Origin: an uncultured Gammaproteobacteria bacterium
Lineage (GTDB): Bacteria > Patescibacteriota > Microgenomatia > Levybacterales > GWA1-39-11
Reading direction: 5' to 3'
Length of the DNA: 64,000 nt
Assembly (NCBI GenBank): GCA_964425075.1
Contig: CAYRKM010000001.1
Coordinates: 18,756 to 82,755, forward strand
This document shows, piece after piece, positions 27,198 through 52,866 of the stretch. Numbering within the stretch: the stretch's first letter is position 1; each line of letters opens with the position of its first letter. The translations under genes were made by a program, and so were the position numbers. Under the pieces are notes generated by a model. That model was not told where the DNA came from. It ran no database searches and was given only the letters and a program-made list of their open reading frames with translations.

Positions 27198-28052
27198 ATG
27201 GCAGACGATAATAAAAATATAACAACTGAAGAAAACGTTACTCTTGATGATATGCTTGCAGAAGCTGTGAGCGAAACTCAACCAGAGACAGCTGACAAAA
27301 CTAATGAGACTGAAACGTCAACTGATGATGTGCAATCTGAGGAAACTGTTGAAACTCCAAAGGAAATAACAGAAGAAACCACTGAATCAGTTGAAGCTCC
27401 TGAGGAAGAAGCAGCAATAGATGATGTAGTTGAGGAACCCCAAGAAAAACCAAAAGAATCTACTGAAGACAAAGAGGAAGAAGCAAAAACTCCAGTGAAT
27501 GAAGCCCCAGCAAGAAGTGCTGCAACCGCAAAAGGTCGTTGGTATATTGTTCACACCTACTCTGGACACGAAAATAAAGTGGCCAAAACTTTAATGCAAA
27601 GAGTGCAAAGTATGGGATTTGAAGAACAAATCTTTGATGCACTTGTTCCAACTCGAGAAACAATTAGAGTAAGAGGAGGAAAAAAAGAAACTGTACAGGA
27701 GAAAATTTTCCCAGGATACATTTTGGTAAATATGGAATTATCTGATGAAGCATGGGTTTTGGTAAGAACTACTCCCGGTGTTACATCATTTGTAGGTGCT
27801 CAAAACAAACCAACCCCTATAAGAGACGATGAGGTTAATGCAATTGTTGCTTTCGTTGGACAAAAAGAACCAACTTACAAAGCTCAATTCTCAACCAATG
27901 AAGCTGTAAAGATTACTGATGGACCATTCTCTGATTTCTTAGGTACTGTTGAGTCAATTGATGAAGCAAAAGGTAAAGTTAAGGTATTAGTCTCAATTTT
28001 TGGACGGGAAACACCCGTTGAGCTTGACTTCCTTCAGGTATCAAAGATATAA
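27198..28052 (+). CDS. nusG: transcription termination/antitermination factor NusG with ~115-aa acidic N-terminal extension
   Basis: NGN domain starts at WYIVHTYSGHENKV; C-terminal KOW (ITDGPFSDFLGTVESIDEAKGKVKVLVSIFGRETPVEL). Confidence 0.85.
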   Translation: MADDNKNITTEENVTLDDMLAEAVSETQPETADKTNETETSTDDVQSEETVETPKEITEETTESVEAPEEEAAIDDVVEEPQEKPKESTEDKEEEAKTPVNEAPARSAATAKGRWYIVHTYSGHENKVAKTLMQRVQSMGFEEQIFDALVPTRETIRVRGGKKETVQEKIFPGYILVNMELSDEAWVLVRTTPGVTSFVGAQNKPTPIRDDEVNAIVAFVGQKEPTYKAQFSTNEAVKITDGPFSDFLGTVESIDEAKGKVKVLVSIFGRETPVELDFLQVSKI

Positions 28053-28196
28053 TCGCTGAACTTGAAAGGAAATCATCATACCGACAACTCTTGTTCAAAT
28101 GTCCAACTGGCCATTTGAACTGAGACTCTCGGTATATTTCTCGCAAAAAGACTTTTATCGATATGCAAGCGAACACTTGCGACAGGAGCTCGAAAT

Positions 28197-28622
28197 ATGG
28201 CAAAAAAGATAAAAACATATATTAAAATCGCTATTAAAGGTGGCGAGGCCAATCCTGCACCACCAGTGGGAACAGCACTTGGACCCCACGGACTTCCTAT
28301 CATGGAATTCGTGAAGGCATTTAATGAAAAAACAGCAGAACAAAAAGGAATTCTTCTCCCAGTTGTTATCTCAGTATACGAGGACAGAACATTCTCTTTC
28401 ATCGTTAAAAAACCACCAGTTTCAGAACTTATCAAAATGGCACTAAAAATCGAAAAGGGCTCACAAAAACCAGGACGAGAAACTGCAGCAACTCTTACCA
28501 AGTCCCAAGCCGTAGAAATCGGAAAAACAAAAATGGACGACCTTAACACCAAAGACGAAGAAATGGCATCCCGAGTTGTGATGGGCACTGCCCGTTCAAT
28601 GGGAATTAAAGTGACTGACTAA
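28197..28622 (+). CDS. rplK: 50S ribosomal protein L11
   Basis: MAKKIKTYIKIAIKGGEANPAPPVGTALGPHG... near-consensus L11. Confidence 0.9.
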   Translation: MAKKIKTYIKIAIKGGEANPAPPVGTALGPHGLPIMEFVKAFNEKTAEQKGILLPVVISVYEDRTFSFIVKKPPVSELIKMALKIEKGSQKPGRETAATLTKSQAVEIGKTKMDDLNTKDEEMASRVVMGTARSMGIKVTD

Positions 28623-28768
28623 AAGGAAGTCATCCCGAACTTAATTCGGGATCTTGAAAATACGAAGCACTAAGCTCGAAGCACGAAACAAATTAAAAAT
28701 TACAAATTTCAAACTGTTTCGAATTTCGGATTTAGAATTTCGGATTTCTTTTTCAGAGAAAAAGTATT

Positions 28769-29701
28769 ATGGGAAAAATAAGAATCAAATCATTCGACGA
28801 AGCAACTCCAGAAGAGTTGGCAAAACAAAAAGCTAAAAGAGAAGCAAAAAAGGCGGAAAAAATTGCTGCCAAAAATGAGCAAAAGGCTTCAGCTGGAAAG
28901 AAAACCAATCCCCAAACAGATGGGACAATAACAACTGTTGAAGAACCAATTGCAAAAGACGCTATTGAGGCACAACTTGAGGCAAGCGAAGATCTTTCAA
29001 CTGTTGAAACACAAACCGAAACCCCTACTCCTGCAGTTGAAGTAAAAACTGCTAGCGAAACTGTAGAGACTCCAAAAAAAGAGAGAAAACAAAAGAAAGA
29101 AAAATTTGTACAAGTTAAAACCGACTCGAAAAGACACACTGAAAACAAAACATACGTTTCAAAAACCCAACCTTACAAACTTGATCAAGCTCTAGAGGCC
29201 CTCAGAAAGTTTAAAAAAGCAAAGTTTGATGAAACCGTTGAACTTCACGTAAATGTGAAAGAGAAAGCGACTTCTGGTCAGGTAACACTTCCTCACGGAA
29301 CTGGAAAAACTTTAAATATAAAAGTTGCAGATGAAGCAATAATCGCTGAGGTTAAAAAAGGAAAAATTAATTTTGATATTTTAGTTGCAACACCTTCAAT
29401 GATGCCTCAATTGGCTCAAGTTGCTAAGGTTCTAGGACCACGCGGCCTTATGCCAAATCCAAAGAACGGAACTATCGCAGAGAACACCGCTGAGGCAGTA
29501 AAAAAACTATCTGCAGGCCAAATTAGCTACAAAACAGAACCGGTTAGCCCTATTATTCACATAGCAGTTGGGAAAGTTAGCTTTGATGACAAACAATTAA
29601 AGGATAACATCTCAACTCTTCTAACAAGTGTTGGAAGTGCAAATATCAAGTCAGTGGTCCTCAAATCCACCATGAGCCCTGGTATAAAACTCCAGGTCTA
29701 G
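28769..29701 (+). CDS. rplA: 50S ribosomal protein L1 with ~110-aa K/E/A-rich N-terminal extension
   Basis: L1 core from KLDQALEALRKF...KFDETVELHVNV...LPHGTGK; synteny secE-nusG-rplK-rplA. Confidence 0.85.
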   Translation: MGKIRIKSFDEATPEELAKQKAKREAKKAEKIAAKNEQKASAGKKTNPQTDGTITTVEEPIAKDAIEAQLEASEDLSTVETQTETPTPAVEVKTASETVETPKKERKQKKEKFVQVKTDSKRHTENKTYVSKTQPYKLDQALEALRKFKKAKFDETVELHVNVKEKATSGQVTLPHGTGKTLNIKVADEAIIAEVKKGKINFDILVATPSMMPQLAQVAKVLGPRGLMPNPKNGTIAENTAEAVKKLSAGQISYKTEPVSPIIHIAVGKVSFDDKQLKDNISTLLTSVGSANIKSVVLKSTMSPGIKLQV

Positions 29702-46286: not shown

Positions 46287-46302
46287 TCCCAGAAGTATCT
46301 TG

Positions 46303-46373
46303 CAGGGGTATCAGGGCTCGAACCTGAAATGGAGGTTTTGGAGACCTCTGTGATACCATTTCACCATACCCCT
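46303..46373 (-). tRNA. tRNA-Trp (anticodon CCA), intact copy embedded between the two exons of the split copy
   Basis: AGGGGTA-TG-GTGA-AATGGTA-TCAC-A-GAGGT-CTCCAAA-ACCTC-CATT-TCAGG-TTCGAGC-CCTGA-TACCCCT-G. Confidence 0.8.
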
Positions 46374-49450: not shown

Positions 49451-49485
49451 TTTACTTTAATTTTTCTCGTTCTTTGTGAGGTTGA
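49451..49485. repeat. 35-bp direct repeat copy 1 (duplicate of rpmG 3' end), left boundary of island F segment
   Basis: TTTACTTTAATTTTTCTCGTTCTTTGTGAGGTTGA identical to 51210..51244; both followed by T8-9. Confidence 0.7.
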
Positions 49486-49756
49486 TTTTTTTACACTTCT
49501 ATTACTTCTTTTCCTCTAAGATTCAGCTTCTCTTGCTTTAATTTAACCTAAATTTATAACTTCGTCAGAAATTTGTCATGAAAAATTGACTGTAAGTGGT
49601 AAAATTGTTGAATTGAAAATCCAATTTGGGTTATATCAATAAGCTCTTTAATAATTGGGTGGATTTTTAGTGCTTGAAAGGGTTCTCCCGATCTTAAGAT
49701 ATATTGTCTTCGGATCGGGGGAACTCCCCAAGGGATCACAGAAAGGATCAACAACC

Positions 49757-50896
49757 ATGCCGAGTTTGCGCGGCCAAGAGGTTACCATTTCCGTCATTAA
49801 GGCGGATGTTGGCAGCATCGGAGGCCACACGCGCCCAAGCCCAACCATGATCAGACACGCGGAAAGAGCCATCGAAGGCGCAATCCGCGAAGGACTCATC
49901 GTGGACGGCTTCGCCACCTTCATCGGTGACGACACTGCCCTGAACATGCTTCACACTCGTGGAGAAAACTCGCAGGACGTACATCTCTTCGCATCAACGA
50001 CGTTCTTCGAGATGACCGGGATCGCGGAGAGAGAAGGTCTCTATGGCGCAGGCCAAGACCTCCTTGAGAGTGCTCCCAGCGGCAACGTCCGCGGAGCGGG
50101 ACCTGGTGCTGCCGAGATCGAATTCGTTCTCTTGCCTGACCGACGTTCGGCGGAGAGCATGATGATCTTCTCTGCAGACAAGTGCGGACCGGGAATGTTC
50201 AATCCCTACATCCGCGACGTCCTCACCAGCCCTGACGTCAACGGAGGGCTTCTTATTGCCTCTCCGCAGCGAGCAGGCTTCACGGTGAAGATCATCGACA
50301 TGAGTCCAGGGGCAAAGCAGGCCATCACGCTCACTCTGCCTGAAGACCGAGATGCGATGGCTGCTCTTCTGAGGACGCCAGACGTCTTCGCTGTCAAAAG
50401 CGTCTATTCGGGTCAGCATCCCGAAGAAAAGCTGATGGACTGCACGACCGACAGGCTTCACAGCTTCGGACCGACCGTGTACAAGGGCAAAGATGACCCT
50501 GTGCTCATTGTCCGAAATCAGGGGCTGTCCCTGGCACCGGAGGAGATCCTTCGACCGTGGACAAATCCGCGCAGAACCACAGGCGGCGCCCGTGGGAGCT
50601 CGGTGCAATACCCCTTCCCGAGCGCCATCAACACCCCGGTGACAGGAGCTTACTGCCAGACGCTAGTCGCCTGCATCGGCTTCTCGGTCAGCGAGGAGGG
50701 CAAGTTCTCGGAACGGGTCGACTTCTTTGCTTGGCCCGTCTGGGACTGGACACGTCAGCAGGTCTCCAAGCTTGCTAACCAGCTCTACCGCGAGGGGTTC
50801 AACGAAATGGCAATCGCCTCGAGTGGCGAACTCGCCTACACAGGCCTTCGTGACCTGGACGAGGCACTTTTGGCCCGTTTCGAGCCCATCGACTAG
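49757..50896 (+). CDS. fbp: bifunctional fructose-1,6-bisphosphate aldolase/phosphatase (class V FBPase, archaeal type), island F
   Basis: 380 aa from MPSLRGQEVTISVIKADVGSIGGHTRPS; ISVIKADxGS, GDDTALNMLHTRGE and GLYGAGQDLLESAPSGNVRGAGPGAAEIEF blocks match the FBP aldolase/phosphatase family; ~60% GC. Confidence 0.8.
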   Translation: MPSLRGQEVTISVIKADVGSIGGHTRPSPTMIRHAERAIEGAIREGLIVDGFATFIGDDTALNMLHTRGENSQDVHLFASTTFFEMTGIAEREGLYGAGQDLLESAPSGNVRGAGPGAAEIEFVLLPDRRSAESMMIFSADKCGPGMFNPYIRDVLTSPDVNGGLLIASPQRAGFTVKIIDMSPGAKQAITLTLPEDRDAMAALLRTPDVFAVKSVYSGQHPEEKLMDCTTDRLHSFGPTVYKGKDDPVLIVRNQGLSLAPEEILRPWTNPRRTTGGARGSSVQYPFPSAINTPVTGAYCQTLVACIGFSVSEEGKFSERVDFFAWPVWDWTRQQVSKLANQLYREGFNEMAIASSGELAYTGLRDLDEALLARFEPID

Positions 50897-51209: not shown

Positions 51210-51244
51210 TTTACTTTAATTTTTCTCGTTCTTTGTGAGGTTGA
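51210..51244. repeat. 35-bp direct repeat copy 2 = last 34 nt plus stop of rpmG
   Basis: see copy 1. Confidence 0.7.
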
Positions 51245-51390
51245 ATTTTTTTGCAATTCTTGCAGTACTTTTTAAGATTGAGTTTTTCAGGCGTGTTTAG
51301 CTTGTTGCGCTCACTAATATAGTTAACGCTTTTACAAACGGTGCATTGTAGCCCCAAAATAAATCGTACGTCTCCTTTTTTCTTTGCCAT
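51211..51390 (-). CDS. rpmG: 50S ribosomal protein L33
   Basis: 59 aa (below ORF-track cutoff): MAKKKGDVRFILGLQCTVCKSVNYISERNKLNTPEKLNLKKYCKNCKKIQPHKEREKLK; CxxC...CxxC zinc-ribbon L33. Confidence 0.85.
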   Translation of the reverse strand: MAKKKGDVRFILGLQCTVCKSVNYISERNKLNTPEKLNLKKYCKNCKKIQPHKEREKLK

Positions 51391-51637
51391 ATTTAAAAAA
51401 GTAAATATAAATAAAAGTCCTTGTTTTTTAAATATACCGAGAGTCTCGGTTCAAATGGTCAGTTGAGCATTTGAACAAGAGTTGTCGGTATATGGGTTTA
51501 AATAATCGAATTCAAACCCGTAAGTTCAAATTATACAAGATAGCCTGAAATTAATCAAGGATACTTTTTGAAGACAAAAGCCTTACTACCTCTTTCAATT
51601 GAGTTCATTTATTGATAAAATTTCAGAACTAAATTTT

Positions 51638-51709
51638 GCCTCGGTGGCTCAGTGGCAGAGCACGTTCTTGGTAAGAACGGGGTCGTGGGTTCGATTCCCA
51701 CTCGAGGCT
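51638..51709 (+). tRNA. tRNA-Thr (anticodon GGT)
   Basis: GCCTCGG-TG-GCTC-AGTGGCA-GAGC-A-CGTTC-TTGGTAA-GAACG-GGGTC-GTGGG-TTCGATT-CCCAC-TCGAGGC-T. Confidence 0.85.
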
Positions 51710-51882
51710 CAAGGCAAATTTGCCTCACTGCTTTTCATTTCAGCCTATTTTTTGTACAATATCAGGACGTATTTTGCCGAGATGGAGACATGACTATGCA
51801 GACCGAAGGTCACAGCGGTCATCGAAGCGAAGCTTAAATACGAACAACAAAAAATTGAGGTTAAACTTGAAGTGATATTAAT

Positions 51883-51967
51883 GCCGAGATGGCGGAGCGG
51901 TCAATCGCAACAGACTGTAAATCTGTCGCCCGTACGGGCTACATAGGTTCAAATCCTATTCTCGGCA
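51883..51967 (+). tRNA. tRNA-Tyr (anticodon GTA) with long variable arm
   Basis: acceptor GCCGAGA/TCTCGGC, anticodon arm ACAGA-CTGTAAA-TCTGT, variable stem GCCCG-TA-CGGGC, T-arm ATAGG-TTCAAAT-CCTAT. Confidence 0.85.
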
Positions 51968-51997
51968 CAAAAATTGCGTAGAAATTTTTGTGAAGAG

Positions 51998-52214
51998 AAC
52001 AAGGTTTTCTTATTCTCGGCACAAAATTGTAGATTTTGGGTTGAGAACAAGGTTTTCTTATTCTTGGCACAAACGAAGCGTAGTGTCCGAGAGCAAGGTT
52101 TTCTTATTCTCGGCACAAAATTGTAGATTTTGGGTTGAGAACAAGGTTTTCTTATTCTTGGCACAAACGAAGCGTAGTGTCCGAGAGCAAGGTTTTCTTA
52201 TTCTCGGCACAAAT
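51998..52214 (+). repeat. tandem array (5 copies) of a 28-nt unit AACAAGGTTTTCTTATTCT(C/T)GGCACAAA derived from the tRNA-Tyr 3' end, with alternating 20-nt spacers
   Basis: copies at 51998, 52046, 52094, 52140, 52188; spacers alternate ATTGTAGATTTTGGGTTGAG and CGAAGCGTAGTGTCCGAGAG (a 96-bp unit repeated ~2.3 times); the unit's last ~17 nt equal the tRNA-Tyr 3' end. Confidence 0.7.
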
Positions 52215-52413
52215 CTTTTCTGTGTTAAACCACAAATACTTTTACTTTCAGACATAAATTTCCCCTATTTGCATCCCATAACACATTTTTTACCTCAAAA
52301 CTGAGTTTTACTCCAGGACTGTGGATGGAGTGTGGACAAGATTTACTATATGACTTCTGTTTTTCTTATGAGATATGCTCTACTTTCTGAAGTCAAAATT
52401 TAGAAAAAGTTAT

Positions 52414-52866
52414 CTATTTTTTGGTGGGACTAGGACTTAATGAAGGTGAAGGTAAGGCGCTTGGTGCATCTCCTTTCACAACTGGACCGATATCTACAAC
52501 CTTCTTTATCGAAGGCCTATAAAGGATAGCTTTCTTGCTTTCGGGGTAAATAAGTACCTTGTCCCCATTTTCAGCGTTTTTGAAAAGCGGTTGGCCCTCA
52601 AGTTGTTTTTTGTCAACTACAGTTGCAATTGTTACCGGTCCACCAGGCAAAATTACACTTTTTGCAACCTCATTTACCAAAGAATCCACCTCATTTGCCC
52701 CGAGCACTTTTTCTGAAGAATAATAATCTTTAAAAATAAAATAACCCACCCCAAGACCCAGCATTATTAATAGGAAGAAAACAACAAGAATAATAGGAAC
52801 AGCTTTTGAACGAGGTTCTCTTTTCGTATCGGACATATCGTTATGTATTGTGCCAAATTCTCGCAT
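52414..52866 (-). CDS. membrane-anchored protein, paralog of the N-terminal domain of 55694..56584
   Basis: 150 aa; TM then ...ATVVDKKQLEGQPLFKNAENGDKVLIYPESKKAILYRPSIKKVVDIG, closely matching ...ATISDIAKLENQPFFREAKNGDKLIIYAGIRKAILYRPEIKKIIEIS; P/S-rich tail. Confidence 0.5.
   Translation of the reverse strand: MREFGTIHNDMSDTKREPRSKAVPIILVVFFLLIMLGLGVGYFIFKDYYSSEKVLGANEVDSLVNEVAKSVILPGGPVTIATVVDKKQLEGQPLFKNAENGDKVLIYPESKKAILYRPSIKKVVDIGPVVKGDAPSALPSPSLSPSPTKK

Follow-up and report, generated by a model that had tools for sequence, protein, structure and literature searches.

The subject of this analysis is a short tandem array that follows a tRNA-Tyr gene in a 64-kb stretch of contig CAYRKM010000001.1, a stretch here called the window. 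The gene, tRNA-Tyr(GTA), was located on the plus strand at 51883–51967/8 by ARAGORN and by Rfam (62.5 bits), with 51967 taken as the end of the intact copy. It does not encode CCA, but closes with ...TCTCGGC-A, after which the genomic sequence continues with CAAA. Immediately downstream, a series of partial copies of the tRNA-Tyr 3′ end extends to 52213. Such an array had been proposed in a sequence-only reading of this DNA, and it is real, since repeat searches and a shuffle control agree on it. The repeat search returned a 31-nt unit, GAGARCAAGGTTTTCTTATTCTYGGCACAAA, in five assembled copies starting at 51995, 52043, 52089, 52137 and 52183. They share 97–100% identity, lie all in direct orientation and follow each other with a start-to-start spacing of 48/46/48/46 nt. 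Position 5 of the unit varies between A and G. Tandem Repeats Finder gave a period of 48 repeated 5.3 times at 51957–52213 as well as a period of 94 repeated 2.3 times with 99% identity at 51995–52213, and the 94-bp double unit shows 1 mismatch in 125 nt. For a 26-nt core pattern, the shuffles predicted 0.00 matches in the window; five were observed, and the 64 kb contain none outside the array. The dimensions given in the sequence-only reading, a 28-nt unit with 20-nt spacers and a perfect 96-bp duplication, are to be replaced by the 31-nt unit with linkers of 15–17 nt and by the near-perfect period of 94 bp.

After the first linker, two linker sequences, A and B, alternate. This alternation had been recognized before; the accompanying idea that the two are diverged versions of each other has paled to a weak likeness (p about 0.1). 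Linker A, on the other hand, resembles the first linker (p = 0.0004), and this derivation points to duplication. As to the tRNA portion of the unit, the 15-nt sequence TATTCTCGGCACAAA, which comprises the end of tRNA-Tyr and the beginning of its trailer, is exact in three of the five copies, and both type-A copies deviate by one C-to-T mismatch. About 27 nt of the unit can be aligned to the tRNA-Tyr end, provided that a 3-nt gap (in the T-loop) and two T-arm mismatches are admitted. The identity to the tRNA end claimed earlier is thus exact for the last 15 nt, and the longer match needs the gap and the mismatches. Among the four tRNA genes of the window, tRNA-Tyr is the only one with partial copies there. 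Because the copies carry CAAA, that is, the genomic trailer, and not CCA, they are copies made at the DNA level rather than retro-copies of a mature tRNA. Mechanically predicted open reading frames (ORFs) cross the array, but the periods of 94 and 46 nt are not divisible by three and would break any reading frame. A coding repeat was therefore rejected, and the repeat is regarded as non-coding.

The hairpin fold of the modules

When the array is read from one GGCA to the next, each module begins with CAAA, a short linker, G-N-N-GAGA(A/G) and C, and continues with AAG, the 5-nt loop GTTTT, CTT, A, TTCTYGGC and A. In each of them the G-N-N-GAGA strand pairs with the tRNA-derived TCTYGGC, so that every module folds as the same hairpin of about 30 nt, in which an acceptor-like stem (7 bp) rests on a shortened T-arm and is followed by the discriminator A. 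What had been described as spacers is consequently not inert, as the GAGA(A) located there pairs with the tRNA-derived TTCTC. Module 1 forms the hairpin GAAGAGA-A-C-AAG GUUUU CUU-A-U-UCUCGGC-A at 51992–52021 (−6.9 kcal/mol, z = −2.2). Module 2 (type A, 52022–52069) consists of a linker with a small hairpin of its own and of GUUGAGA...UCUUGGC-A (−8.0 kcal/mol; 8/8 outer pairs, three of them G-U), and module 3 (type B, 52070–52115) of a linker and UCCGAGA...UCUCGGC-A (−10.6 kcal/mol, z = −3.1). Module 4 (52116–52163) is an exact copy of module 2, and module 5 (52164–52213) is an exact copy of module 3 plus CAAA, with which the array ends; all five modules are on the plus strand. The z-scores of the module folds range from about −2.1 to −3.2. 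Ahead of module 1, a 10-bp trailer hairpin, CACAAAAATT-GCGTAGA-AATTTTTGTG, directly follows tRNA-Tyr at 51966–51992, overlapping the end of the gene by two bases (−8.8 kcal/mol, z = −3.6).

Across the four distinct unit sequences, one of which comes from the related genome L020 (NCBI GCA_964504535.1), 90.9% of the hairpin cells are paired, as opposed to 45–70% when the 3′ partners are slid. The 5′ strand of type B, UCCGAGA, agrees with the 5′ acceptor strand of tRNA-Tyr, GCCGAGA, at 6/7 positions. The type A strand, GUUGAGA, forms all pairs, three as G-U, and the strand of module 1, GAAGAGA, has two mismatches. Counted as acceptor pairs, this amounts to 7/7 in type A, 6/7 in type B and in the L020 unit, and 5/7 in module 1. 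The discriminator A73 is present in all units and G1-C72 in three of the four distinct ones. The T-stem-like helix comprises four pairs and a conserved C-A mismatch and is closed by a 5-nt loop, GTTTT in the window and CTTGC in L020. It is important to note that the invariant parts of the stem are GAGA/TCTC and the three inner pairs and that a T-loop consensus is missing, so that the likeness to a tRNA is partial. A 5-bp T stem with a 7-nt T-loop (TTCRANY) was not found in the modules. An Rfam scan run permissively (E up to 10) gave nothing meaningful on them: RtT did not appear, the tRNA model was silent there, and a weak match to the mascRNA family lies on the neighbouring tRNA-Thr instead. 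Likewise, ARAGORN at default thresholds, run with and without introns, called no cloverleaf in the modules; its calls near the array are tRNA-Thr and tRNA-Tyr alone.

Related genomes and the proposed origin of the array

We compared the locus with four relatives. The closer one, L004 (JGI Ga0130016_10052026), shares 86% nucleotide identity with the window in rpmG and 98.9% over 87 nt in tRNA-Tyr. A small gene, a promoter block, tRNA-Tyr, 32 nt, tRNA-Thr and rpmG follow one another there on one strand, and behind tRNA-Tyr of L004 there is no array, no unit and no trailer hairpin. L005 and L006 have promoter and tRNA-Tyr in the same orientation as L004, and both contigs end inside tRNA-Tyr. L020 is more distant (rpmG 79% at the nucleotide level, tRNA-Tyr 80/85 identical, a neighbouring protein 42% at the amino acid level). 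It keeps the ancestral orientation and carries tRNA-derived pieces downstream of tRNA-Tyr. A trailer hairpin together with GTGAAGAGA stands directly after the tRNA gene and is orthologous to that of the window (p<0.0002 for its alignment to the first linker of the window). Next comes a decayed full-length copy of tRNA-Tyr with a 23-nt insertion in the anticodon loop (position 37/38), the last 52 nt of which are 100% identical to the gene. After a linker, there is finally a unit, GAGAACAAACTTGCTTTATTCTCGGCACAAA, which is identical to the window unit at 25 of 31 positions, including the part not derived from the tRNA, GAGAACAA. The L020 unit has the same C-A mismatch, and one double change from G-C to A-T in its stem. 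In L020, at 2240–2900 on the minus strand, we also noted two tRNA-Thr-like fragments, both of which have the same palindrome inserted in the D-loop. The acceptor of the tRNA-Thr 3′-end copies, CCGAGGCTC, is closer to the tRNA-Thr allele of the window than to L020's own.

A blastn comparison of the window with L020 detected no similarity beyond tRNAs, coding regions and the trailer and unit pieces. Since unit and trailer hairpin are common to both genomes and the remaining sequence cannot be aligned, both pieces are old, and the five-fold array is lineage-specific and recent. Between window and L020, the trailer hairpin and the unit are conserved about as well as rpmG (79% at the nucleotide level), and conservation at about the level of coding DNA hints at constraint. 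From these data the array probably represents a lineage-specific amplification of a much older mini-pseudogene of tRNA-Tyr, located in the 3′ trailer of the tRNA-Tyr transcription unit, an interpretation in which we place moderate confidence.

The scenario that we derive from three genomes would begin with a tandem duplicate of tRNA-Tyr, as in tyrT-tyrV of E. coli, the distal copy of which then decayed. This stage appears to be preserved in L020, where the decayed copy with its 52-nt exact 3′ match speaks for gene duplication followed by decay. An internal deletion that removed the D, anticodon and variable arms would have left a hairpin of about 30 nt that retained a 5′ acceptor-like strand (G-N-N-GAGA), a short T-arm and the acceptor strand of the 3′ side together with the discriminator A and CAAA. 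In the lineage of the window, this unit and its linkers may then have multiplied to five through unequal crossing-over or slippage between the 31-nt repeats, with the 94-bp double unit duplicated last; L004 would have lost the whole trailer. The slippage-type origin put forward as one of two options in the sequence-only reading accords with this, as the recent rounds are tandem duplications that fit either mechanism. On the plus strand between 51000 and 53000, a consensus scan found a sole terminator-like site, the hairpin AGGCAAATTTGCCT with a T-rich tail at 51712–51725, which follows tRNA-Thr, and none between tRNA-Tyr and the array. The array is therefore likely transcribed as the trailer of pre-tRNA-Tyr. 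In such a transcript each unit would re-create the acceptor/discriminator context at which pre-tRNAs without CCA are cut. The trailer would probably be cleaved and turned over by tRNA-processing nucleases, and at most it might modulate the maturation of the 3′ end or the extent of read-through in the direction of the convergent gene downstream.

Several points weigh against this interpretation. The unit was seen in one relative only, L020, and its absence from the closer relative L004 indicates that it is dispensable. Gene conversion from the tRNA, and not selection, could have kept the 3′ half of the unit identical to it; neither GAGAACAA nor the trailer hairpin can be explained in this way. 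The covariation test on the four distinct unit sequences yielded one compensatory pair, and 102 of 500 shuffles were as good, which is not significant; this is too thin to prove selection. Types A and B differ by four wobble-preserving changes, three same-strand C/T and one A/G. For the three that create G-U pairs, a C-to-T mutation bias may be a sufficient explanation. Since these three are same-strand C/T changes, we rejected the differences as decisive evidence of selection. Furthermore, the outer three "acceptor" pairs are complete in type A only, and the 5-nt loop without T-loop consensus makes recognition by tRNA enzymes uncertain. Finally, an ancient integration event may have seeded the first unit, and the number of modules could be an artefact of assembly.

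The latter objection assumes that a graph loop was traversed too often or that strains were merged and that the true locus has one to three modules. The 99% identity of the 94-bp double unit would suit such an error. So would two Logan short-read contigs, L001 and L002 (from SRR14271365 and SRR14271370), which match the window with 100% identity on the right side of the array and end at 52259 and 52227, that is, they stop 13–45 nt from its right edge, as repeat-induced breaks would. Look-ups with exact proteins (rpmG, the fructose-1,6-bisphosphatase with two starts, and a 916-aa surface protein) found no independent contig spanning the array. However, the A/G variant requires reads across a junction between a G-type unit and an A-type linker, and, barring a mixture of strains, such a junction needs more than three modules. 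The source contig of 835 kb speaks for a highly contiguous assembly, and the distinct modules, module 1, A and B, at least must be real. An inflated copy number thus seems improbable to us.

The other option of the sequence-only reading was stacked attachment (att) scars: an integrase would have inserted repeatedly at the 3′ end of tRNA-Tyr and displaced partial copies, the interiors being deleted later. The direct repeat of the tRNA 3′ part is indeed there, and partial tRNA genes in prokaryotes are usually of such origin (PMC9897764). Other 3′-end duplications occur at the locus, such as that of rpmG at the bisphosphatase cassette described below, and L020 has both the 52-nt exact copy of the tRNA-Tyr 3′ end and the tRNA-Thr 3′ fragments of a different allele. 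In addition, the identity of the modules to the tRNA begins in or near the T-loop, and Williams is said to have treated the T-loop region, in 2002, as a known crossover sublocation. Yet scans of 60 ORFs across the window against Pfam and PHROG revealed housekeeping genes and no integrase, transposase or phage gene. The copies lie 15–17 nt apart, not kilobases, with nothing the size of an element between them. The regular 48/46 period and the 99%-identical double unit bespeak tandem duplication, and the linkers are related to one another. The sequence 3′ of the tRNA is orthologous in L020, unlike an arm derived from an element, and the modules possess a 5′ acceptor-like strand that is not expected of a 3′-end scar. 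Att scars would also call for an integrase-bearing element with an attP carrying GAGAACAAGGTTTTCTTATTCTCGGCA, and two scans of viral contigs, one with the unit and one with the tRNA 3′ end, gave 0 matches. A scan of genome contigs for the unit likewise gave 0 matches, and a single metagenome-contig match was dismissed as chance, as it lies inside a coding region. We hence consider stacked att scars unlikely. A degenerate or orphan array of clustered regularly interspaced short palindromic repeats (CRISPR) has a next to negligible probability. Regular 31-nt direct repeats with 97–100% identity do fall within the CRISPR range of about 23–47 nt and are separated by short intervening sequences. 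But CRISPR spacers should be unique and about 26–72 nt long, whereas two sequences of 15–17 nt alternate here. Moreover, the array repeats the 3′ end of a tRNA, with units that overlap the gene of this tRNA and are spaced irregularly (46/48), and the Pfam scans of the 60 ORFs turned up no cas genes. Short, redundant spacers and the lack of cas genes among the scanned ORFs exclude a CRISPR locus, in agreement with the sequence-only reading.

It is also conceivable that the hairpins serve a purpose of their own. In the role of functional minihelix RNAs, they would be released by RNase P and RNase Z, receive a CCA tail and act as decoys, as regulators of the CCA-adding enzyme or tyrosyl-tRNA synthetase (TyrRS), or as rtT-like modulators, with their number selected for dosage. 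The acceptor-plus-T-stem geometry, A73, the G1-C72 pair in three of four distinct units, the single compensatory stem change and the preservation of unit and trailer hairpin in the distant L020 at about coding-DNA level all favour this, as does the scarcity of non-coding DNA in an 835-kb genome. Against it stand the 5-nt loop without T-loop consensus, mismatches at pairs 1–3 in several units, the absence of the unit from the closer L004, the non-significant covariation and the missing match to an Rfam family. Taken together, functional minihelix RNAs appear quite unlikely. A more specific version, that the modules are minihelix genes of tRNA-Tyr of about 30 nt, excised by RNase P/RNase Z, tailed with CCA, possibly recognized by TyrRS via G1-C72/A73 and serving to decoy or regulate enzymes or toxins that are directed at acceptor ends, with the five-fold amplification reflecting dosage selection, must be called very doubtful. 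If true, however, it would amount to a natural bacterial "minihelix operon" in a member of the candidate phyla radiation (CPR). In a CPR genome of 835 kb there is little room for junk, and the core unit is common to a distant relative.

Rearranged surroundings of the array

The flanks of the locus are collinear with L004, but the tRNA pieces between them (window 51559–52282) are inverted, so that tRNA-Thr comes before the promoter and tRNA-Tyr. tRNA-Thr(GGT), identified by ARAGORN, Rfam and blastn at 51638–51710 on the plus strand, has its orientation to rpmG reversed in comparison with L004 and L020. Two adjacent inversions in situ would fit this order of the tRNA genes. The conserved promoter block of tRNA-Tyr (TTTTCA-17-TACAAT, 51731–51775, plus strand) is a promoter-like match with 100% identity to L005 and 93% identity to L004. 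In the relatives it directly abuts tRNA-Tyr, whereas in the window an orphan 5′ fragment of tRNA-Tyr, GCCGAGATGG (51776–51785; 11/12 match to the tRNA 5′ end), and a 97-nt insert (51786–51882), which is not present in L004, L005 and L006, stand in between on the same strand. The orphan fragment, the insert and the intact tRNA-Tyr, which starts with the same 10–11 nt, together resemble a target-site duplication around a small insertion. The possibility that the insert is a degenerate module of the array was rejected (similarity to the linkers p 0.15–0.3). On the other side, a conserved non-coding block, TTACTCCAGGACTGTGGATGGAGTGTGGACAAGATTTACTATATGA (52283–52353), is shared with L004 and L006 (blastn) and with L005 (direct reading) and has no match in Rfam. 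It sits between the array and the convergent gene of a 150-aa membrane protein (52414–52866, minus strand), downstream of that gene. Homologues of this protein and of the 916-aa surface protein belong to Patescibacteria/CPR, with Berkelbacteria, Gottesmanbacteria and Levybacteria among the source names; for the 916-aa protein, the next relatives beyond the identical record are at most 45% identical. Look-ups of the small-protein homologues P0006, P0007 and P0010 returned only paralogues in unrelated contexts.

Rearrangements are also seen around rpmG. The gene for a class V fructose-1,6-bisphosphatase (FBPase, 49655–50896) has a GC content of about 48%, compared with about 37% for the genome, and lies in a 1.7-kb segment that is flanked by direct repeats of about 43 nt of the rpmG 3′ end (49453–49495 and 51212–51252). 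In L020, PAP2 directly adjoins rpmG, whose 3′ end is also present as a diverged tandem copy (L020 1596–1637). The FBPase segment resembles a cassette that was inserted where a gene end had been duplicated; no integrase was found among the scanned ORFs, and a scan of genome contigs with the FBPase protein yielded no relatives. Of the integration hotspot suspected in the sequence-only reading, the rearranged state of the neighbourhood is supported, with its inverted tRNA genes and its FBPase cassette. A 62-nt palindromic element containing ACCGAGAgTCTCGGTTCAAAT occurs twice, at 51430–51491 and, inverted, at 28078–28139, with 93.5% identity. One copy is part of a 126-nt insertion that separates the start codon of rpmG from the conserved promoter of this gene, and the other is located between nusG and rplK. 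This palindrome looks like a dispersed hairpin of the repetitive extragenic palindromic (REP) or miniature inverted-repeat transposable element (MITE) kind. Finally, the usual neighbourhood of rpmG, tRNA-Trp, secE, nusG, rplK and rplA is split in the window: nusG and rplA are at 27–30 kb on the plus strand (27198–29701), and tRNA-Trp (46302–46373) and rpmG (51211–51390) are both on the minus strand.

Known systems for comparison

Regular arrays beside tRNA genes are not necessarily CRISPR loci or att scars, and the present case may serve as a warning in this respect. Documented attR-type partial tRNAs flank elements of 9–23 kb or larger, with repeats of about 44 bp (PMC9897764). Like the copies described here, they are direct repeats of a 3′ portion of the tRNA downstream of the intact gene. 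They differ in that the window has five periodic copies spaced 15–17 nt apart, with a 5′ acceptor-like strand and with no element or integrase found. REP sequences, bacterial interspersed mosaic elements (BIMEs) and MITEs are, as here, short intergenic hairpin repeats; the linkers of the array share a GTAG core, and the genome also has the dispersed 62-nt palindrome of the REP/MITE-like kind. By contrast to REP sequences and MITEs, the unit is confined to 51995–52213 within the 64 kb, occurs in direct orientation and derives from the adjacent tRNA gene, and the GTAG core is not conserved in the linkers of L020. A signal of the type used by REP-associated tyrosine transposases (REP/RAYT) had been considered for this core and was discarded because the core is not kept in L020 and no transposase was seen.

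An acceptor-like stem on a T-stem-like helix, completed by a discriminator, has in principle the shape of a substrate for RNase P, RNase Z and the CCA-adding enzyme. With this architecture the modules resemble tRNA minihelices, the t-elements of plant mitochondria and mascRNA, in which an acceptor-like stem is likewise stacked on a T-stem-like helix and followed by a discriminator. Unlike minihelices, they have a 5-nt loop (GUUUU; CUUGC in L020) without T-loop consensus, and pairs 1–3 are imperfect in most copies. The unit offers a compact 30-nt substrate on which tRNA-processing enzymes could be tested for their action on such trailers.

The closest known analogue appears to be the 178-bp repeats of tyrT/rtT in E. 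coli. These trailer repeats (rtT RNA) came to be known in the late 1970s; to our knowledge, their function is still unclear. Bosl and Kersten reportedly showed in 1991 that they are transcribed and processed, whereas for the present array we infer both. In E. coli MG1655, which we examined directly, tyrT has repeats spaced by 178 bp in which 19 nt of the tRNA-Tyr 3′ end recur exactly in six copies, and rttR and tpr are annotated on them; one repeat unit of this operon codes for rttR (PMC3318445). In both systems tandem direct repeats start immediately 3′ of tRNA-Tyr in the operon trailer, the tRNA 3′ end is copied exactly at the close of each unit (over 19 nt in E. coli and over 15 nt here), and each unit has a complementary segment upstream (GGGGAAGGAT/ATCCTTCCCC in E. 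coli, GAGAA/TTCTC here). Both plausibly arose from a tandem duplication of tRNA-Tyr followed by unequal recombination. The unit described here is, however, about four times shorter (46–48 bp versus 178 bp) and, unlike tyrT, the array contains no protamine-like ORF. Its copies end in CAAA, as the tRNA genes of the host lack an encoded CCA, and those of E. coli in CCA. As there is no similarity to RtT in sequence or in Rfam, the E. coli repeats are to be regarded as an analogue and not as a homologue or a member of the same family. The present case adds trailer repeats of a tRNA operon that would stem from debris of a tRNA gene; of modest interest are their core unit, which is kept in a distant CPR relative, and their minihelix-like shape. 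Such tRNA-fragment debris can flag local rearrangement, which is a second warning from this locus. Viewed side by side, tyrT and the present array suggest that tRNA-operon trailers recurrently evolve hairpin repeats bearing tRNA ends, perhaps kept for a reason.

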